A stretch of 10,640 nt of DNA from a virus (taxonomy: Duplodnaviria; Heunggongvirae; Uroviricota; Caudoviricetes). The notes below the pieces were generated by a model, which worked only from the letters and a program-made list of their open reading frames with translations, did not search any database and was not told the DNA's origin. The position numbers and the translations under genes were made by a program. The stretch lies in IMG/VR virus record IMGVR_UViG_2541047125_000015, one strand, 5' to 3'. This document shows, in pieces, positions 720-10,330 of the stretch; the first letter of the stretch is position 1, and the number at the start of each line of letters is the position of its first letter.

Positions 720-809
720 ACGATCGGTGCGATTGCTGATTTCCTTATGAAAAACGGTTGAGTGTTTGCCGCGTCCTGGAGTTCCTTACTTAACTTCAGG
801 ACTTTTTTT

Positions 810-1967
810 ATGCCGAGAATAATCGAATTACGCCAGCAGAAAACCGCCATTAAAAATCAGATGCGCGACATGCTGGAGAACGCGGAAAAAGAAAACCGCA
901 GCCTTAACGATGCTGAGGGCGCAAAATTTGACGAATTACGCGCTAAAGCTGAATCCCTCGATAAAGACATCTCCCGCCTTGAGGCCGTTGCTGACGAAGA
1001 GCGCAGTAAACCAGGCAAAAACAGCCAGACCACTGACCCCGCCGAACTACGTCACTACATTCTGACAGGTGAAACCCGCGCATTGAGTACAGGCGTTCCC
1101 GCTGATGGTGGTTATACCGTTATCCCCGAACTGAACACCGAAATCATGCGAATGCTGACGGATGAATCCACCATGCGCCGCATCTGTACCGTGAAGAAAA
1201 TCAGCAGCAACGAGTTTAAGCAGCTTGTTTCCGCTGGCGGTGCGACCGTTAACCACGGTGAAGAGGGTAAGGCACGCGAACAGACCAGCACCCCGCAGAT
1301 TAACGAGGTGAGCATTAAGCTGTATCCGGTCTATGCGTACCCGCGCACCACGCAGGAAATCGTGGATTTTTCCGATGTGGACATCCTTTCATGGCTGACG
1401 GGCGAGATTGGCGACACCTTCACGGAAACCGAAGAAAGCGATCTGGTTGTGGGCGACGGTGACAAAAAAGCAAAAGGTTTTTTATCCGTACCCCGTGCAG
1501 AGAAGAACGACAAAGAGCGTGATTTTGGTACGTTGCAGGTAATTAAACCTTCCGAATCTCTGGCGTGGACATCTGCGGACCCGCTGATCGACCTGAAATT
1601 TGCATTACGTAAAAAATACCGCAAAAACGCGGTTTGGGTGGTTAACTCCACGACGGCGGCAAAACTCCAGAAGGTGAAGAACGCGAACGGTGATTACATC
1701 TGGCGCGACCGTTTACAGGCGGGTGATCCTGATACGTTGCTGGGCCTTCCGGTCGAATATCTGGAGTTTATGCCTGATAACGTTATTGCCCTGGGTGACT
1801 TCAAACGCGGTTACTACATTGTTGATCACGAAACAGGTGTTCGCACCAGACCGGACAACCTCACAGAGCCGGGCTTTATCAAAATTTTCACGCAGAAATA
1901 TTTAGGCGGTGGCGTGGTGGATTCGAACGCTATAAAGATTCTGGAACTGCCGCAGGACGACGATTAA
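810..1967 (+). CDS. Phage major capsid protein, HK97 family
   Basis: 385 aa from ATG810 (track ORF starts at GTG762; ATG810 has a better-placed SD-like cagga). N-terminal charged coiled-coil delta-like segment, then a large domain with motifs typical of HK97-fold capsids (ADGGYTVIPEL..., GDFKRGYYIVDH). Length and position next to the protease fit. Confidence 0.9.
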   Translation: MPRIIELRQQKTAIKNQMRDMLENAEKENRSLNDAEGAKFDELRAKAESLDKDISRLEAVADEERSKPGKNSQTTDPAELRHYILTGETRALSTGVPADGGYTVIPELNTEIMRMLTDESTMRRICTVKKISSNEFKQLVSAGGATVNHGEEGKAREQTSTPQINEVSIKLYPVYAYPRTTQEIVDFSDVDILSWLTGEIGDTFTETEESDLVVGDGDKKAKGFLSVPRAEKNDKERDFGTLQVIKPSESLAWTSADPLIDLKFALRKKYRKNAVWVVNSTTAAKLQKVKNANGDYIWRDRLQAGDPDTLLGLPVEYLEFMPDNVIALGDFKRGYYIVDHETGVRTRPDNLTEPGFIKIFTQKYLGGGVVDSNAIKILELPQDDD

Positions 1968-2021: not shown

Positions 2022-2579
2022 ATGATGAGTATGGAAATCCGGTCATCGGAAATCACCACCAGCGGCAGCAACACGCTTACGGGCTACGTTGTTCGCTGGG
2101 ATAACCTTTCAGAACTGCTATGGGGCGAATTTTACGAAAAATTCCAGCGGGGGGCGTTTACTGAATGGCTTGCGGTGGGTAATGACGTTCGCGGCCTGTA
2201 TGAGCATGACCACAGCATGTTACTGGGGCGCACCCGTTCCGGTACGCTGAGACTGGAAGAGGATGACACAGGGTTACGTTTTGAACTGATCCCACCGGAT
2301 ACCAGCACAGGGCGGGACGTTATCGAACTGGTTAAACGTGGTGACATCTCGGGCATGAGCTTTGGCTTTCGTTCCCGTAAGGATGTATGGGATACGACAG
2401 TCGATCCATGTGTGCGTACTGTACTGATAGCGGAACTGTACGAAATTACCGTGACATCCGTACCGGCTTACCCTGATTCCGGCGTGGAGCTGGCCCGCCG
2501 TTCCCTGTATGAGCAGCACCCTGAAAAAATGCCTCGTGCGGATAATCGCCGCTGGTGGGCGGATTTAGCGGGGGTGTGA
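2022..2579 (+). CDS. Prohead (maturation) protease, HK97 family
   Basis: 185 aa; GYVVRWDNLSE...RGLYEHDHSMLLGRTRSGTLRLEEDDTGLRFELIPPDTSTGRDVIELVKRGDISGMSFGF is the conserved core of HK97-type prohead proteases. SD-like aggtga 8 nt upstream. Confidence 0.9.
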   Translation: MMSMEIRSSEITTSGSNTLTGYVVRWDNLSELLWGEFYEKFQRGAFTEWLAVGNDVRGLYEHDHSMLLGRTRSGTLRLEEDDTGLRFELIPPDTSTGRDVIELVKRGDISGMSFGFRSRKDVWDTTVDPCVRTVLIAELYEITVTSVPAYPDSGVELARRSLYEQHPEKMPRADNRRWWADLAGV

Positions 2580-2580
2580 T

Positions 2581-3792
2581 ATGTGGCCTTTCAGAAGAAA
2601 AAAAGAGCAGCGCAGCATGACGCTTGATGAGTTTATGGCGCTGGCTGGCACATCGAACACGGGGGCGGGTGAGTACGTATCATCGGGGACAGCGGAATCA
2701 CTGCCCGCCGTCATGAACGCCGTCACGGTCATCTCTGAGGCGGTGGCTACCATGCCGTGTTACCTGTACCTGGTACGCAATGAGAAGGGGAAGGAGGCCC
2801 GAGAGTGGCTTGATTCTCATCCGGTCGATCACATCCTCAACGAGCGCCCGAACGCATGGCAAACCCCCTACCAGTTTAAGCGAATGATGATCCGCCACTG
2901 CCTGTTAAACGGTAATGCTTATGCGGTGATTCGGTGGGGGCGTGATGGTTTTCCGGTGGCTTTACATCCTTACCCGCCGCAGTCGGTGAACGTGGAGCAG
3001 ACAGGTGAGCATAACTGGCGCTACTGCATCACTGACGCCTACACCGGAAACACCCGCAACTATTTACCGTGGGAGGTTCTCCACCTTCGTTACTCCACGG
3101 ATGACGGTTTTATGGGGCGCTCACCTGTAACCATCTGCCGCGAATCGCTGGGGCTTGGGCTGGCCCAACAACGCCACGGCGCGAGCGTGATGCGTGATGG
3201 CATGATGGCGGCAGGGGTTATCACGTCAGGCGAGTGGCTGGACGGCGTGAAGGGTAAACAGGCATTAGCCGCACTGGAACGCTACAAAGGGGCCAGAAAC
3301 GCCGGAAAAACGCCCATCCTTGAAGGGGGTATGAGCTATCAGCAGCTGGGCATGAGTAATCAGGATGCTGAATGGCTGGCCTCCCGTCGCTTCACCATTG
3401 AAGACATCGCCCGAATGTTCAACGTCTCGCCGATTTTTTTGCAGGAATACAGCAACAGCACCTACAGCAATTTCAGCGAGGCAAGCCGCGCATTTCTCAC
3501 CATGACGATGCGCCCGTGGCTGGCGAACTTTGAGCAGCAGATAAAAAACGCCCTGCTGGTGGCCTCGCCTGTACCTGGTATCCGGTATCAGGTGGAGTTT
3601 GACAGCGCGGACCTGTTACGGGCCACACCTGGCGAACGCTTTGCCACCTATGAACGCGGCATCAAATCCGGCGTTATGTGCCCGAACGAAGCCCGCGAAC
3701 GTGAAGGGCTGTCCCCGCGTGATGGTGGTGATGAGTTCAGCCAGGCATGGAAACAGGAAGTAAAAATCAGCGAGGGAGAAAAACCGGAATGA
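2581..3792 (+). CDS. Phage portal protein, HK97 family
   Basis: 403 aa; portal-like blocks (LPAVMNAVTVISEAVATMP, NGNAYAVI, FTIEDIARMFNVSPIFLQEYSNSTYSNFSEASRAF). Start is 1 nt after the protease stop. Confidence 0.9.
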   Translation: MWPFRRKKEQRSMTLDEFMALAGTSNTGAGEYVSSGTAESLPAVMNAVTVISEAVATMPCYLYLVRNEKGKEAREWLDSHPVDHILNERPNAWQTPYQFKRMMIRHCLLNGNAYAVIRWGRDGFPVALHPYPPQSVNVEQTGEHNWRYCITDAYTGNTRNYLPWEVLHLRYSTDDGFMGRSPVTICRESLGLGLAQQRHGASVMRDGMMAAGVITSGEWLDGVKGKQALAALERYKGARNAGKTPILEGGMSYQQLGMSNQDAEWLASRRFTIEDIARMFNVSPIFLQEYSNSTYSNFSEASRAFLTMTMRPWLANFEQQIKNALLVASPVPGIRYQVEFDSADLLRATPGERFATYERGIKSGVMCPNEAREREGLSPRDGGDEFSQAWKQEVKISEGEKPE

Positions 3793-4127
3793 ACATAGGG
3801 CGACTGCGTGACAGGATAACGATTCAGACCCTGAAACAGACCAGGGATATAACCGGCGAAATACTCGAAACGTGGGTGGACGGTCACACACTCTGGGCAA
3901 GCGTGAACATGATCAGCAGCAAGGAGGCCATTTCATCGGGTGCAGAACTGGCGACTGGAACGGTAAGGATATGGATACGCTACAGGAAGGACATCAACGC
4001 CACCAGCCGGATAAAGGTCAATACGGGGCCGCTGGCGGGGCGTGTACTGAATATCATCGGGCAGCCGCTGCCGGATGCCGCCAGGACACGCCTTGAAATT
4101 CTTTGTCGTGAGGGCGCGGAAAAATGA
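3789..4127 (+). CDS. Head-tail adaptor / head closure protein (SPP1 gp16-like head-tail joining family)
   Basis: 113 aa from ATG3789, which overlaps the portal stop as ATGA (track ORF starts further upstream at 3747 inside the portal). RDRITIQTLKQTRDITGEILETWVDGHTLWASV...VRIWIRYRKDI...RLEILCRE matches the family pattern R.RI.I....TRD..G...E.W....WA.V ... IRYR.DI. Confidence 0.75.
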   Translation: MNIGRLRDRITIQTLKQTRDITGEILETWVDGHTLWASVNMISSKEAISSGAELATGTVRIWIRYRKDINATSRIKVNTGPLAGRVLNIIGQPLPDAARTRLEILCREGAEK

Positions 4128-4420
4128 CAGAAGAACTTATCACCCTGGAAGAAGTGAAACTCCATTGCCGCATCGATGGCGACGAGGAAGACCAGTTAAT
4201 CAGCGGATACATCGCCGCATCGCTTGAGGCGTGCCAGATACACATAGGCAGGCGCTTTGATGACGGGCTGGAGTTCACGCCAGCCATAAAGATTGGCTGC
4301 ATGATGTTTATCGCTCACCTGTATGAAAATCGCCAGATTGTCGCGGATAACGCAAAAACACGCGTACCCATGACGATTGGTGCACTCTGGACGGCTTACC
4401 GTGATGTGGGGGTGTACTGA
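4124..4420 (+). CDS. gp6-like head-tail connector protein
   Basis: 98 aa; LITLEEVKLHCRIDGDEEDQLISGYIAASLEA is the characteristic N-terminus of gp6-like connector proteins. Start overlaps the adaptor stop by 4 nt. Confidence 0.8.
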   Translation: MTEELITLEEVKLHCRIDGDEEDQLISGYIAASLEACQIHIGRRFDDGLEFTPAIKIGCMMFIAHLYENRQIVADNAKTRVPMTIGALWTAYRDVGVY

Positions 4421-4860
4421 TGCCGTGGCAACCATTAAGACGATGCACAGAACCAGGCTGTAACAGGCGCGTGAAGTCCGGCAAGTGTGAGGAGCACAGG
4501 CGGGCGGCATGGCGTGCAGAGGATGCCAGACGAGGACACCGCCGCGCGCGTGGGTACTCCAGACAGTGGGACAAATACCGCGCCATGTATCTGAGTAAAA
4601 ACCCGTTATGCGTGCGATGCCTTGAGAAGGGGATATATACGCCCGCCGTGGTGGTGGATCACATTATCCCGATTAATGGCGGTGATGATGTTCTCTTCTG
4701 GCCCGAATGGAACCATCAGCCATTGTGCCAGGCGTGCCATAACCAGAAAACGAAATGGCTTGATCCGGCAACAAAAAGCAAGCGTGCCGCAGGTGGATTT
4801 CGTGAAGAGGAAGAACGGGCCGCTAACCGCAATAACTGGATGTATGACGCTGATGAATGA
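4420..4860 (+). CDS. HNH endonuclease (phage packaging-associated)
   Basis: 146 aa; Cys-rich N-terminus (CTEPGC...GKCEEH), then VVDHIIPI...NHQPLCQACHNQKT, the HNH His/Asn and zinc-binding Cys/His pattern. Sits immediately upstream of terS as in HK97-like phages; start overlaps the connector stop by 1 nt. Confidence 0.85.
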   Translation: MPWQPLRRCTEPGCNRRVKSGKCEEHRRAAWRAEDARRGHRRARGYSRQWDKYRAMYLSKNPLCVRCLEKGIYTPAVVVDHIIPINGGDDVLFWPEWNHQPLCQACHNQKTKWLDPATKSKRAAGGFREEEERAANRNNWMYDADE

Positions 4861-5026: not shown

Positions 5027-5037
5027 TGAGGCTGTAT

Positions 5038-5082
5038 GACGGGGTGGGGGGCGTTTTCAGGACAAACCCGCCCCCGCCGGGC
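5038..5082. promoter_or_regulatory. Candidate cos / terminase recognition region (G-run and C-run dyad)
   Basis: gacggggtggggggcg ... cccgcccccgccgggc; gggggcg (5047..5053) is complementary to cgccccc (5069..5075). It lies in the 288-bp gap between HNH and terS, where HK97-like phages place cos. An AT-rich stretch follows. Confidence 0.3.
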
Positions 5083-5148
5083 ACCGAACGCCTCCTCAAA
5101 TTTTTATGCACGGGAATTTTTTGAAAAATAATCTGACGAAAAATAAAC

Positions 5149-5505
5149 ATGGCAAGACCACCGAAAGCCCCCGCCTACCTTGATGACATCGCCGTAAAGC
5201 AGTGGCGGGAAAAATCGCGCCAGCTTGCGGAACGGGGAGACCTCACCCCCGCCGACTGGAGTAATCTCGAACTGTATTGCGTCAACTACTCGATATACAG
5301 GAAAGCCGTCGCAGACCTTGCGGCACGCGGGTTCAGCATTGTTAACAGTCAGGGCGGAGAGAGCAGAAACCCCGCATTAAGCGCGAAATCCGACGCTGAA
5401 AGAGTGATGATAAAAATGGCCTCCTTGCTTGGTTTTGACCCGATAAGCCGCCGTAAAAATCCACCGGAAACAGAAGAAGAGGACGAGCTTGACCACCTGG
5501 AATAA
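5149..5505 (+). CDS. terS: Terminase small subunit, P27 family
   Basis: 118 aa; LTPADWSNLELYCVNYSIYRKAVADLAARGF...NPALSAKSDAERVMIKMASLLGF fits the P27-type small terminase pattern, and it sits directly upstream of terL. Confidence 0.85.
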   Translation: MARPPKAPAYLDDIAVKQWREKSRQLAERGDLTPADWSNLELYCVNYSIYRKAVADLAARGFSIVNSQGGESRNPALSAKSDAERVMIKMASLLGFDPISRRKNPPETEEEDELDHLE

Positions 5506-7150
5506 GTACGCAGAAGACGTAAAAACGGGCAAAATTCCGGCCTGTAAACGGTTAAAACAGGCCGTTAAACGGTACTTTTCGGACCTTAAAAGTCCCCTTT
5601 ACACGTTCGATAGTGAGGTTGTGGAGCGGTTTATTGCCTTTTCAAGGGTGTGCCCGCACGTAAAAGGGCCGTTGCGTGGCAGACCCATTGAGCTGGAGCC
5701 GTGGCAGCAGTTCGCCTTTGCGTGCATCCTGGGTTTTAAGGTTAAGGCCACCGGACGGCGCAAATACTCGAGCGCTTTTATCGAAGTACCGCGAAAAAAT
5801 GCGAAATCCACGACCGCCGCGATTCTGGCTGACTGGTTTCTGATTATGGAGAACGGGCAGCAGGATATTTACACCGCAGCGGTGAGCCGTGACCAGGCAC
5901 GGATCGTGTTTGATGATGCGCGTCAGATGTGCCTTTTATCCCGACCGTTACGCAGGCGGGTGAATATTCAGGCCCACAAGGTGATACACCCGAAAACCAA
6001 CAGCCTGTTAAAGCCGCTGGCAGCAAAAGCGGCAACCATCGAGGGGACAAACCCGAGTCTTGCCATTGTGGACGAATATCACCTGCACCCCGATAACGGC
6101 GTTTATTCCGCGCTTGAGCTGGGGATGGGTGCACGTCCCGAAGGGCTGTTATTTGCCATTACCACATCGGGAAGTAACGTCGTTTCAGCCTGTAAGCAGC
6201 ACTATGATTATTGCTGCCAGATCCTGGACGGCGAAGAGGTCAACGAATCGCTTTTTGTGCTGATTTACGAGCTGGACGATGAAAACGAGGTTGACGATCC
6301 GGCGATGTGGATAAAGGCGAATCCCAATATCGATGTTTCCGTTGATCGTGAAAAACTGGCCTCAACCATCCAGAAAGCGCGGGGTATTCCGTCGCAGTGG
6401 GTGGAGATGATGACAAAGCGGTTTAACATCTGGTGCCAGGGGGCCACCCCGTGGATGGGTAACGGGGCGTGGGCTGAGTGTGCCGGAACGTTCACGGAGG
6501 AGGATTTACACGGCCAGGAATGTTACGCGGGGCTTGATTTGTCATCCACAAGCGACATTTCCAGCGTGTGCTATGCCTTTCCGGTCGGCAAAAAAATTAT
6601 GCTGCTTTCCCGTCACTATCTGCCGGAATTTCAGCTACAGAACCCCGCCAACAAGAACCGGGCCATTTATCGCCAGTGGGCTAAATCGGGCTGGTTGCGG
6701 ATAACGCCGGGCGACTGCATTGATTACGACCGGATCCGCGATGACATCATGGAGGACGCGGAAAAATTTGATATCAGGCTGGTGGGCTTTGATACGTGGA
6801 ACGCCACGCATCTCAGGACGCAATTACAGGGGGCAGGGTTTGAGGTTGAGCCGTTCCCGCAAACCTATCTGAGATTCAGTCCGGCGGCGAAATCGTTCGA
6901 AGTTTTTGTTAACCGCAGGGTGATAGTCCATCGTGATGATCCGGTGTTGTCGTGGTCGATGAGTAACGTCGTGATGCAGAGTGACGCGAACGCCAATATC
7001 AAGCCAAACAAGAAAAAATCACCGAACAAGATAGACCCGAGCGTGGCGGCACTGATGGCGTTTGGCACATTCCAGGCAGAGCATGAAGATTTTGCTTTTG
7101 ATATAAGCGACAGCCACCGCGAAAAACTGGAAGAATTTAACGGGGTGTGA
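5489..7150 (+). CDS. terL: Terminase large subunit
   Basis: 553 aa; an ATPase-like N-terminal region (PRKNAKSTTAA) and a nuclease-like C-terminal region. Starts at TTG5489, the only start codon after the in-frame stop at 5444..5446, with SD gagga 5 nt upstream. Overlaps terS by 17 nt. Confidence 0.9.
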   Translation: MTTWNKYAEDVKTGKIPACKRLKQAVKRYFSDLKSPLYTFDSEVVERFIAFSRVCPHVKGPLRGRPIELEPWQQFAFACILGFKVKATGRRKYSSAFIEVPRKNAKSTTAAILADWFLIMENGQQDIYTAAVSRDQARIVFDDARQMCLLSRPLRRRVNIQAHKVIHPKTNSLLKPLAAKAATIEGTNPSLAIVDEYHLHPDNGVYSALELGMGARPEGLLFAITTSGSNVVSACKQHYDYCCQILDGEEVNESLFVLIYELDDENEVDDPAMWIKANPNIDVSVDREKLASTIQKARGIPSQWVEMMTKRFNIWCQGATPWMGNGAWAECAGTFTEEDLHGQECYAGLDLSSTSDISSVCYAFPVGKKIMLLSRHYLPEFQLQNPANKNRAIYRQWAKSGWLRITPGDCIDYDRIRDDIMEDAEKFDIRLVGFDTWNATHLRTQLQGAGFEVEPFPQTYLRFSPAAKSFEVFVNRRVIVHRDDPVLSWSMSNVVMQSDANANIKPNKKKSPNKIDPSVAALMAFGTFQAEHEDFAFDISDSHREKLEEFNGV

Positions 7151-7446: not shown

Positions 7447-7461
7447 CTTGCTGATATTCCC

Positions 7462-7505
7462 GATAACGCAAAATTGCGCTGGCTGACTTGTTGCATTGCA
7501 AAAAG
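7462..7505. repeat. Direct repeat A, copy 1 (about 43 bp)
   Basis: gataacgcaaaattgcgctggctgacttgttgcattgcaaaaag. Shares GATAACGC..ATTGCGCTGGCTG...TGCA with copy 2 and contains the palindrome ttgcaTtgcaa. Confidence 0.55.
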
Positions 7506-7600
7506 TTAAGCAGGAAGGCACGGCCTGTAAGATGGGATGCAGTAAGTAGTTCAAGGCTACCTTGTGCTGGCACGCACAGTTAAGCCGTCGGTGCTGGATA

Positions 7601-7615
7601 TCCCCCACTGGGGGA
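7601..7615. promoter_or_regulatory. Perfect 15-bp palindrome TCCCCCA-c-TGGGGGA
   Basis: Read directly from the sequence; lies between the two A repeats. Confidence 0.5.
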
Positions 7616-7647
7616 AAAGCTGGCTACATCCCTCACATCTGAGGACT

Positions 7648-7690
7648 GATAACGCGACATTGCGCTGGCTGGCAAAGTGCAAAATTGCAC
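7648..7690. repeat. Direct repeat A, copy 2 (about 43 bp)
   Basis: gataacgcgacattgcgctggctggcaaagtgcaaaattgcac; roughly 70% identical to copy 1 by eye; ends in the palindrome gtgcaAAATtgcac. Confidence 0.55.
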
Positions 7691-7697
7691 GATGGCC

Positions 7698-7858
7698 TAA
7701 CCCATTGATTATTTCGAAAACCTGCAATGCAGGAAATCGGGGAAGTAAGCCTAAGCTATTGATTGTTTCGAAAACCCTCATTGGGGGATGTCGGGAAAGT
7801 AAGACTAACCCATTGATTCTTCCACAATCCTCAATTTGAGGAGGCAGGGAACATCCCC
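7698..7858. repeat. Tandem array of three ~53-55-bp direct repeat units (B1-B3), each with a TTTCGAAA-type palindrome and a short hairpin
   Basis: Units at 7698..7750, 7751..7805 and 7806..7858 share TAAcCcATTGATT - TTTCGAAAACC - 13-nt hairpin - G-rich tail. Hairpins: cctgcAATgcagg, ccctcATTggggg, cctcaATTtgagg. Confidence 0.65.
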
Positions 7859-7894
7859 TAAATCCGGTGATGTATTCGGCCCCTTTAACGGGTA

Positions 7895-7930
7895 TTGCGA
7901 TTTTCGCAACCCCCTACGAAATTTTCGTAG
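7895..7930. promoter_or_regulatory. Two adjacent dyads built on CGAAA/TTTCG half-sites
   Basis: ttgcg-atttt-cgcaa (7895..7909) and the perfect inverted repeat CTACGAAA-t-TTTCGTAG (7914..7930); same half-site as the TTTCGAAA cores of the B units. Confidence 0.45.
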
Positions 7931-7955
7931 TTTAATTACTCGTCAGATTAATCGC

Positions 7956-8007
7956 TAACCCACTGATATTTTCGGAAACCTCAATTTGAGGAGGCCGGAA
8001 CGTCTAC
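7956..8007. repeat. Fourth B-type repeat unit (B4), about 100 bp downstream of the tandem array
   Basis: taacccactgatattttcggaaacctcaatttgaggaggccggaacgtctac; same architecture, and its hairpin cctcaATTtgagg is identical to that of B3. Confidence 0.6.
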
Positions 8008-8240
8008 ATAGCTGCATCGCCGTAATGATGATTCAGCCCACCAGCCAAATCAGCACAGCAACGACAGAATAGCCCGACACAGAAAAACCACGAATATGGG
8101 GTTTTTGTTATGGCATGGTCATGATGACCGCCCCTGCTCTGAATGGTGGAAATCACCACGCAGATCATCAACCAGCTTCATGACGGATAGCCGGAAAATG
8201 ATAACGGTTAAGCAAAACCATCAGCAAATTTCCCTTTTGT

Positions 8241-8304
8241 TTGTTATTGTTCGTCGTTGTTCGTAGAGCTTCAACGAAATGTGTGGTCAGTTGTGTGGTC
8301 AGTT
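8241..8304. promoter_or_regulatory. Phased TGTTCGT repeats plus a perfect 12-bp tandem duplication just upstream of int
   Basis: TGTTCGT at 8248 and 8258 (10-bp phasing, preceded by ttgtttgttat); gtgtggtcagtt repeated exactly twice at 8281..8292 and 8293..8304, 36 bp before the int start. Confidence 0.5.
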
Positions 8305-8339
8305 TTTTGGGGCTGGAGGACTGAAAAGAGGATCTGATA

Positions 8340-9560
8340 GTGGGAAAAGCACTAAACAAACTGAGCGATTCGACATTAAAAAAATTGGCGGCTGTCCAGG
8401 CAGAAAAAGAGCGTTTTTACTCCGACGGGGGCGGGCTGGAGATTAAACACTCAAAAGGCGGAAAATTAACCTGGTATTTCCGGTACCGAACGGGAGGCCG
8501 TGAGGTTGCCGCAGAGCGGTTAAAGCTGGGGGCTTACCCTGAATTGTCGCTGAAAGCTGCAAGGGAAAAACGCGCACAGTGCCGGGCATGGCTGGCTGAG
8601 GGTAAAAACCCCCGTTATGAGTTGTGCGCCACAGTACAGGAAGCGCTAAAACCCGTTACGGTGAAGGAGGCGATTAACTACTGGCTGGAGGAATATGCGA
8701 AGGATAACCGCAAAGACTACATAAAGCTGGTGCAACGTATGGATAAGCACATCATTTGCCATATAGGGGCAATTCCTCTTGATAAATGCGACACAAGGCA
8801 GTGGATCGCATGTTTTGACCGTGTACGAAAAAAAGCACCAGTAGCAGCGGGGCACGTCATGCAAACCTGCAAACAGGCGCTAAAGTTCTGCCGCAGGAGA
8901 CGCTACGCGTTCAGTAATGCCCTGGACGATTTGATCGTCAGCGATGTGGGTAAGAGAGCAGAAATTCGCGAGAGGGTGCACAGTAACAGCGAATTAAAGG
9001 AAATTTTACGCGCTATTGATGGTGATGTGTTCGCGCCTTACTACAGCGCGTTAATGCGCTTGCTGATTGTGTTCGGGTGCAGAACTGCAGAGGTCAGACT
9101 TTCAGAGATCAAAGAATGGGATCTGAAAGAAATGTTGTGGACAGTGCCAAAAGAGCACAGCAAAACGAAGGTAACGATATTCAGGCCAATCCCCGATGGC
9201 ATTTTGCCGTTCATTCAGAAGCTGGTGGATCAGAACCGGCATACAGGGTTATTGCTCGGAGAACTGAAAAAAGATACCACGGTAGCGCAATATGGGCGAA
9301 ATGCGCATAAGCGGCTTAACCAGGAACATTGGTCACTGCATGACTTTCGCCACACGTTTACAACGATGCTGAACGATTTAGGTGTCGATCCGCATATCGT
9401 GGAGCACATCACAGCGCATCAGATGCCCGGTCAGCAAAAAACCTATAACCATTCACGCTATTTACAGGCGAAGCGGGACGCTCTGAATCTGTGGGTTGAG
9501 CGCCTCGATGTGCTGGCTGGAAATCATGAAAATATTGTTATGCTGAAGGTGGCCAAATGA
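8340..9560 (+). CDS. int: Tyrosine site-specific integrase, P4 type
   Basis: 406 aa from GTG8340 with SD aagagga upstream. N-terminal arm-binding-type region (LEIKHSKGGKLTWYFRYRTGGREV...LGAYPELSLKAAREKR) and C-terminal catalytic region with LHDFRHTF (H-x-x-R) and a downstream Tyr (KTYNHSRYL). Confidence 0.9.
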   Translation: MGKALNKLSDSTLKKLAAVQAEKERFYSDGGGLEIKHSKGGKLTWYFRYRTGGREVAAERLKLGAYPELSLKAAREKRAQCRAWLAEGKNPRYELCATVQEALKPVTVKEAINYWLEEYAKDNRKDYIKLVQRMDKHIICHIGAIPLDKCDTRQWIACFDRVRKKAPVAAGHVMQTCKQALKFCRRRRYAFSNALDDLIVSDVGKRAEIRERVHSNSELKEILRAIDGDVFAPYYSALMRLLIVFGCRTAEVRLSEIKEWDLKEMLWTVPKEHSKTKVTIFRPIPDGILPFIQKLVDQNRHTGLLLGELKKDTTVAQYGRNAHKRLNQEHWSLHDFRHTFTTMLNDLGVDPHIVEHITAHQMPGQQKTYNHSRYLQAKRDALNLWVERLDVLAGNHENIVMLKVAK

Positions 9561-10330
9561 AATTACCTAAAAGACTCTATTATCCGTTACCTGAAGCGGC
9601 AGAAAAGTTAGGCTGTGCAATAAAAGATCTTTATCATTACGCATATATAGGTGCTCTTAATATTTCTGTATATATACCAAAAATTGATGCTAAAAAATTC
9701 AATTTTTCATTATGTCATTTTATCAATGGTTGTAATGAGGAAGAATTAATAAAATATCCTTTCAATGATGAATCTGCTGTTTTTGGAAGTAATTTTACAG
9801 TTGGTTTAACTGGTGACACTGAATTTTTAGATAGTGCCATTATTGGTCCTGTAGGGAATTCTATCAAATGTTATTATGTTAGCAGCTTATCAGGGTTTTA
9901 TTATACTCCGGCATATGTTTTTGCTGATGTCGAATTTAGCATGAGACAATATATAAAATGTTCTCATCTTACGAATAAGTATGGTGATGATAATCTCATG
10001 TATGTTTTTTGTAAGGGTGGTTATGAATTTGATGTTAACTATTTGTGTGTGATGGCTAGTGATTTAGATAATATAAAAAATACGGGAGACTTCCCGAAGA
10101 TAACAGAAGATAGCCCAAAAGCATCGTCAAAAAGGAATGAGGTTATTTACTCTTTAATTAAACTTATTCCAGAAATGGGTGATGTAGACCTGGACACGGA
10201 ATCATTACCTAAAATAGCAGATTTAATTGATTCTATAGCTGCATCCAGAGGGATAGAATTTCCAAAAACACATTGGCAGACATGGCAAAAGTATTTGGGG
10301 CGTGAATCTCAACAAAAACGTAAAAAGTGA
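9557..10330 (+). CDS. AT-rich hypothetical protein (orphan cargo gene), translationally coupled to int
   Basis: 257 aa; ATG9557 overlaps the int stop as ATGA, with SD-like aaggtgg upstream. The DNA is visibly AT-rich (about one-third G+C by eye, versus about half in int) with AAA/ATT/TTT-rich codons. N-terminal RLYYPLPEAAEKLGCAIKDLYHYAYIG loosely resembles an AlpA/excisionase-type HTH; the rest matches nothing I recognise. Confidence 0.7.
   Translation: MKLPKRLYYPLPEAAEKLGCAIKDLYHYAYIGALNISVYIPKIDAKKFNFSLCHFINGCNEEELIKYPFNDESAVFGSNFTVGLTGDTEFLDSAIIGPVGNSIKCYYVSSLSGFYYTPAYVFADVEFSMRQYIKCSHLTNKYGDDNLMYVFCKGGYEFDVNYLCVMASDLDNIKNTGDFPKITEDSPKASSKRNEVIYSLIKLIPEMGDVDLDTESLPKIADLIDSIAASRGIEFPKTHWQTWQKYLGRESQQKRKK

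Follow-up and report, generated by a model that had tools for sequence, protein, structure and literature searches.

Does a satellite that carries terminase genes package its DNA from a cos site of its own, or does it carry a copy of the cos of its helper phage? The question is raised by a gap of 122 nt upstream of terS (positions 5027-5148) in a 10,640-nt stretch of viral DNA, IMGVR_UViG_2541047125_000015; this whole stretch, as analyzed here, is termed the window. An earlier note had marked the gap as a candidate cos site of a satellite. It had described a G-run and a C-run forming a dyad (5038..5082), followed by an A/T-rich stretch, and had reasoned that a matching sequence in the helper would indicate piracy of the helper terminase and a mismatch autonomous packaging. 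For the prototype satellite EcCIEDL933, this question of piracy versus autonomy is already settled experimentally.

Gene content and identity of the element

The window is a capsid-forming PICI (cf-PICI) of E. coli, near EcCIEDL933. Its description as a satellite is borne out by its gene content, which includes capsid, protease, portal, connectors, HNH endonuclease, terS, terL, int and a DUF927 primase, with tail genes absent (Table 1). E. coli 10671 carries an island of ~15.9 kb to which the window is 100% identical; the RefSeq annotation of this island also includes an integrase, a DUF927 primase, an SSB and PerC, and has no tail genes. The features by which cf-PICIs are recognized are present: a backbone of int, an alpA-type regulator and a primase-replicase, a capsid-to-terL set of the element's own, and a length of ~15-16 kb. 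The gene set and its order are those of proteobacterial cf-PICIs, of which EcCIEDL933 is the prototype (bioRxiv 10.1101/2022.09.08.507074). The order capsid, protease, portal, connectors, hnh, terS, terL and the integrase/primase backbone are shared with both EcCIEDL933 and KpCIDSM30104. Packaging in cf-PICIs is of the cos type, into small capsids that the satellite makes itself, and the window shows no essential difference from this scheme.

Table 1. Predicted genes and packaging-site features of the window
Feature	Position	Strand	Basis
Major capsid protein	762-1967	+	Pfam
Prohead protease	2022-2579	+	Pfam
Portal	2581-3792	+	Pfam
Head completion protein	3747-4127	+	Pfam
Head-tail connector	4124-4420	+	Pfam
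HNH endonuclease, satellite packaging module	4420-4860	+	Pfam HNH PF01844, E = 1.8e-8; PHROG 144, E = 8e-45
Small ORF, 60 aa	4844-5026	+	PHROG 3173, E = 3.7e-36; RefSeq hypothetical protein
G-run GGGGTGGGGGGCG	5041-5053		
Putative upstream cos block, G-run GGGGTGGGGGGCG then TTTTCAGGAC	5041-5063	+	invariant or near-invariant columns in 36 sequences
Spacer	5064-5081	+	information content ~zero over most columns, no indels (36 sequences)
C-rich run CCCGCCCCCGCC	5067-5078		
Block 2, ACC.CCCGCCCCC/TCAAATTTTTACGCACGG..ATTTTTTTGAAAATAA	5082-5131		conserved without indels
Predicted cohesive end (cosN), 10-nt 3' overhang 5'-CGAACGCCTC-3'	5085-5094	+	homology
Putative downstream cos block CTCAAATTTTTATGCACGGGAATTTTTTGAAAAATAA, predicted left end of packaged DNA	5095-5131	+	most conserved stretch of the gap
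A/T-rich stretch	~5096 to 5148		
Small terminase terS, P27 family / Terminase_4	5149-5505	+	Pfam PF05119, E = 1.3e-23
Large terminase terL, ATPase and nuclease domains	5489-7150	+	Pfam PF03354, PF20441

Against the E. coli 10671 chromosome the window aligns as two segments that meet at 8306/8307, and this junction identifies it as a circularized or concatemeric (attP) form of the island. At 8306/8307 the right end of the island, past terL and a 99-aa ORF, abuts the sequence upstream of int. The region from 7447 to 8339 is non-coding and contains repeated motifs resembling 'CCCATTGATT..TTCGAAAACC'. Between 9450 and 10350, G+C content falls sharply to 29-37% over a 257-aa ORF (9557-10330) that adjoins int. 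No PHROG family matched this ORF, which is probably an accessory gene of recent acquisition.

The gap had been placed between the HNH gene and terS. This holds on the terS side, but on the HNH side the 60-aa ORF intervenes: it overlaps the end of the HNH gene, and its stop codon falls 14 nt short of the G-run. In Enterobacterales relatives, the sequence encoding its C terminus is conserved. ORFs of this family (PHROG 3173) are present in Enterobacterales cf-PICIs and apparently absent from those of Pasteurellaceae. The ORF might be the 'hypothetical gene 1792' of EcCIEDL933, whose mutation lowered transfer.

Conserved layout of the site

No nucleotide-level description of a cf-PICI cos was found in the searchable cf-PICI papers. 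We compared the regions upstream of terS in 80 IMG/VR loci and in 43 further loci from species-representative genomes of Enterobacterales, Aeromonas and Pasteurellaceae, in which TerS is 58-99% identical, and also searched IMG/VR with two sequence patterns. An alignment without gaps, reaching from the G-run to the T-tract, was possible for 36 sequences from these three groups. They share a layout of two conserved blocks around a spacer that is constant in length and variable in sequence. The consensus of the first block, corresponding to 5041-5063 of the window, is GGGGTGGGGG..GTTT.A.GAC. The end of the G-run keeps a fixed phase, 41-42 bp upstream of the cut predicted below. Among 99 unique IMG/VR sequences, which were selected by block 2, the start of GGTGGGGG lies exactly 52 nt before CTCAAA in 85 and 51-54 nt before it in 96. 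In the window GGGGNGGGGGG, from the G-run, occurs once compared to 0.04 occurrences expected, so the G-run is unlikely to have arisen by chance; TCAAATTTTTAYGCACGG likewise occurs once, with 0.03 expected.

The distance from the G-run to the start of terS is ~100-115 nt in most of these loci, but 216 nt in Rodentibacter and 185 nt in Haemophilus sp. FF7, so the module does not belong to the signals for terS expression. In Rodentibacter, Haemophilus sp. FF7 and Bisgaard Taxon 46, the conserved block and terS are separated by 100-200 nt rich in palindromes (such as CCAATCCAAATTTGGATCGG); these inserts resemble small repeat elements that have moved in between the two. A further observation in Pasteurellaceae concerns Pasteurellaceae bacterium Macca, whose genome holds at least nine loci with a TerS of the window type, which suggests an unusual amplification of cf-PICI-like elements. 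The cos motif is absent from the 170 nt upstream of terS in the one Macca locus that was read.

The G-run, the C-run and the A/T-rich stretch that had been pointed out are all found inside the gap. The dyad that was thought to join the two runs did not hold up as a structure. It amounts to a complement of 7 bp only, between 5047-5053 and 5069-5075. As single-stranded DNA, 5030-5100 has a folding z of +0.62, and 146 of 200 shuffled sequences fold as well or better. Across 27 diverse relatives the stem shows no excess of covariation, with 60.3% of cells paired as against 60.7% in shuffles. The stem is also broken without compensation, because position 5071, a C in the window, is A or T in most E. 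coli relatives. A hairpin was thus ruled out by folding energy and pair counts. The C-run itself lies within the variable spacer and is lineage-specific.

The same layout is found in phages whose cos has been mapped or can be read by comparison. In SfI, TGCCCGCCCC is a 10-nt gap in the virion DNA, as determined by run-off sequencing (PMC3636060). Downstream of their HNH genes, SfV and ST64B read G-run, 31 nt, TGCCCGCCCC, (C)TCGAATTTTTATACCCGCGAAAAATGAAA or (C)TCGAATTTTTATACCCGCGAAAAATGAAATTT, and then terS. The window resembles SfI, SfV and ST64B in the succession of an HNH gene, a G-run, an interval of ~31 nt and a 10-nt C-rich cohesive end ((T/C)(G/A)CCCGCCCC), and also past the cut, where (C)TC(G/A)AATTTTTA...CG..A/T-tract...TGAAA is followed by terS. 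The distance from the G-run to the cut is 41 nt, as in SfV and ST64B. The differences are that SfI, SfV and ST64B are phages, whereas the window element is a tail-less satellite of 16 kb; that the overhang of the window is degenerate (CGAACGCCTC); and that a small ORF lies between its HNH gene and the site. The TerS proteins of SfV and ST64B, although of the same P27 family, are only ~36% identical to that of the window.

HK97 provides the second comparison. Its ends carry 10-nt 3' overhangs, and its HNH protein, gp74, stimulates cleavage (PMC9410871). HK97 TerS binds at +15..+29, where it recognizes a C:G pair at +21 together with the A/T tract beside it (PMC11331095). Both HK97 and HK106, which encode HNH (gp74), TerS (gp1) and TerL (gp2), read G-run, 42 nt ending in the overhang, the cut and then GTTTGAATTTAACGCTAACCCGATTTTTTTAG, so that the G-run precedes the cut by 42 nt in these phages and by 41-42 nt in cf-PICIs. 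HK106 likewise has a 3' overhang of 10 nt and a TerS site at +15..+29. The overhang of the window, predicted by homology, would be a 10-nt 3' extension like that of HK97. When positions are numbered from the cut, ACGC at +12..+15 and a T-tract from +23 or +24 are common to HK97 and the cf-PICI consensus. The TerS site of HK97 consists of a G:C step and then a T-tract, and a counterpart is predicted for the window by position and sequence. Unlike the window, HK97 has a long non-coding stretch between HNH and the G-run, and its TerS is ~27% identical to that of the window.

Physical ends and the predicted cut

Two related cf-PICIs give information on the ends of packaged DNA, which in cf-PICIs forms concatemers through cohesive ends (He et al.). 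The sequence of vB_KppS-Ant was obtained with Nextera XT from virion DNA of particles grown on K. pneumoniae DSM 30104 (PMC8006926). The record proves to be that of a cf-PICI, with its first base 22 nt before terS. It is 100% identical to the chromosome of ATCC 13883 (= DSM 30104) over flanks of 2.4 kb and 2.8 kb, and is without exactly 69 nt across the site; the missing stretch begins just after TTTTCAGGAC and extends until just past GAAAATAAA. Tagmentation libraries under-represent the ends of linear molecules, and we interpreted the absence of the 69 nt as sequence lost at such ends. By gene content and chromosomal identity, vB_KppS-Ant (LR881103.1) is the cf-PICI of K. pneumoniae DSM 30104; it has been described as a filamentous ssDNA prophage (PMC8006926). 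Its ORF 2036-4333, annotated as a tape measure protein, occupies the position of the cf-PICI accessory genes.

The second case is IMGVR_UViG_3300022664_000095, a metagenomic cf-PICI contig of 15,518 nt with terS, terL, int, primase, capsid, protease, portal and HNH genes and no tail genes. Identity to the proteins of the window is 82% for TerS and TerL and 73% for HNH. The contig starts exactly with CTCAAATTTTTACGCACGG (given also as CTCAAATTT) and ends with ...GCAAGGCAC (given also as ...GGGGTGGGGGAGGTTTTCAGGACAAAACCCAAGCCGCAAGGCAC), 10 nt before its start sequence. Between these two points its relatives carry a 10-mer (CACCCGCCCC and variants), and exactly this 10-mer is therefore omitted. 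An independent count agrees: 12 of 13 close relatives have a common 63-mer located 1265 nt ahead of CTCAAA, and in the contig 1255 nt follow the 63-mer. End repair removes 3' overhangs, leaving such a 10-mer missing rather than duplicated. The first base of the search pattern had been set at the predicted +1 before this contig came up, and its tail was retrieved from IMG/VR by means of the G-run pattern. The evidence for exact ends comes from this one metagenomic contig, for which the type of library is not given.

Taken with the conserved layout and the homology to mapped cos sites, the ends of these two relatives make it very likely that the earlier note was right in placing a candidate cos site ahead of terS. 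We regard 5041-5131, with high confidence, as the HK97/SfV-type cos of an E. coli cf-PICI, served by the element's own HNH, TerS and TerL proteins. By homology to the ends of related cf-PICIs, packaged DNA very probably begins within the gap, as had been expected for a satellite with its own cos. The predicted cohesive end, homologous both to the 10 nt missing between the ends of IMGVR_UViG_3300022664_000095 and to the SfI cos gap TGCCCGCCCC, falls to the right of the dyad span that had been emphasized (5038..5082) and that is not the functional core, and the predicted cut lies ~20 bases to the right of that dyad. Nicks would fall at 5084/5085 on the bottom strand and at 5094/5095 on the top strand, and the packaged genome would start at C5095, with terS first. 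A 3' polarity is indicated for the overhang because the 10-mer is lost, not duplicated, in assemblies and because HK97 and SfI provide precedents. The TerS site is predicted at +15..+29, that is, 5109-5123 (CACGGGAATTTTTTG).

The overhang CGAACGCCTC differs from the family sequence CACCCGCCCC at 3-4 of 10 positions and is degenerate in this E. coli lineage, so the cut could sit a few bases away. None of the 79 E. coli-type IMG/VR contigs ends at the site, which is internal in all of them. It is because the 10-mer of the E. coli lineage has diverged, and because no E. coli-type contig ends there, that the exact nicks are given here as predicted positions.

In the mechanism that we propose, TerS would bind the conserved block just past the cut, with its predicted core, a G/C step and then a T-tract, at 5109-5123. 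The TerL nuclease and the HNH protein would nick the two strands 10 bp apart at the predicted positions, leaving 10-nt 3' ends CGAACGCCTC. DNA would then be translocated rightward, terS first, into the small capsid made by the satellite, until the next cos of the concatemer is cut. Situated 41-42 bp before the cut, the G-run block would be a phased and conserved subsite, probably for nuclease positioning or termination.

The site is thus an ordinary member of the known HK97/SfV-type kind of cos, located to the nucleotide by homology, and the current picture of cf-PICI biology is unchanged. What is gained is a testable prediction, at the level of the nucleotide, of the cf-PICI genome cut and TerS site, which should be useful for cos-plasmid reporters and for spotting packaged cf-PICI DNA in viromes. 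It should also be of use in explaining why satellite and helper packaging are mutually exclusive despite a shared HK97-type machinery.

Helper specificity and alternative readings

Several satellites exploit the packaging machinery of their helpers. P4 and cos SaPIs of the SaPIbov5 type copy the helper cos, and Rpp PICIs retarget the helper TerS. Like all of these, the window element would have its DNA packaged from a cos site; unlike them, it encodes its own HNH, TerS and TerL. That it nevertheless carries its helper's cos, for cleavage by the terminase of the helper in a piracy of the P4 or cos-SaPI kind, appears extremely improbable. HK106, the verified helper of EcCIEDL933, is HK97-like and also uses an HNH protein, and its cos has a similar layout of G-run, 42-nt interval, C-rich overhang and T-tract. 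However, when the HK106 cos and the window are anchored at the cut, only 40 of 97 positions are identical, and the overhangs (CGCCGCCAAA in HK106, CGAACGCCTC in the window) as well as the cores of the TerS site differ. A blastn search of 50,697 phage records matched the site to none but cf-PICI-like records, and strain 10671 has a single copy of it. Genetic results for EcCIEDL933 point the same way. For its transfer, EcCIEDL933 needs the hnh, terS and terL that it encodes itself (Alqurainy et al., bioRxiv 10.1101/2022.09.08.507074). All but one of the mutations in its packaging module abolish transfer, and the exception, in a hypothetical gene, reduces it severely (bioRxiv 10.1101/2022.09.08.507074). 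Mutants of HK106 in the homologous packaging genes leave satellite transfer unaffected (bioRxiv 10.1101/2022.09.08.507074). The difference from the HK106 cos and the lack of a phage match thus favor a cos of the satellite's own over a copy of the helper's, and the helper mismatch, in agreement with the EcCIEDL933 genetics (bioRxiv 10.1101/2022.09.08.507074), indicates the autonomous packaging that had been foreseen for this outcome. One phage record was set aside as a comparison: in that of Klebsiella phage P12620-1 (PQ569648.1, 106 kb), similarity to cf-PICI terS (at ~90.6 kb) starts abruptly at the start codon, with unrelated sequence upstream, and the record is probably a chimeric assembly and uninformative.

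Two other readings retain the dyad. A cos could be present with the C-run CCCGCCCCCG (5067-5076) as its cohesive end, within a dyad-symmetric recognition element flanked by the G-run; indeed the window has, at 5067-5075, the same CCCGCCCCC that forms the cosN core in the family consensus and in SfI. We consider this quite unlikely and dropped it: the family alignment puts the run in the variable spacer, where most E. coli relatives read CCCGACCCC or CCGTCCCTG, and the dyad has neither conservation nor covariation. The distance from the G-run to the mapped cut, 41-42 nt in HK97, SfV and the end-mapped cf-PICI contig, instead places the cut at 5094/5095. The dyad might also be a transcriptional element between the head and terminase genes (a terminator, attenuator hairpin or promoter) with no part in packaging, as its intergenic position, its nature as a G+C-rich inverted repeat and the A/T-rich stretch after it would suggest. 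There are one weak terminator-like and one weak promoter-like match, but both are on the minus strand only; neither a T-run after the stem nor a plus-strand promoter match was found. Folding no better than in shuffles, the absence of covariation, the displaced G-runs of Rodentibacter and Haemophilus sp. FF7 relative to terS, and the physical ends of packaged relatives that map to the site all make a transcriptional role very improbable.

With a cos cut at 5094/5095 as the preferred reading, the G-run block is proposed to be a cosQ-like or nuclease-positioning subsite. The block (GGGGTGGGGG.. with TTTCAGGAC) is found in the same phase in HK97 and HK106, in SfV and ST64B and in all cf-PICIs examined, and we suggest tentatively, as a possibility on which we would not insist, that it is a distinct and so far uncharacterized subsite of HNH-dependent packaging. 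As such it could be the place where the HNH protein docks, or a signal for termination like cosQ. Between flanking blocks that are nearly invariant, the cohesive-end position of cf-PICIs is occupied by at least 15 different 10-mers, including CACCCGCCCC, CGCCTGCCCC, CGAACGCCTC, CGCCCGCCCC, CGACCGCCCC and at least ten more. If the G-run block is such a distinct subsite, these variants would mark lineage-specific packaging specificities.
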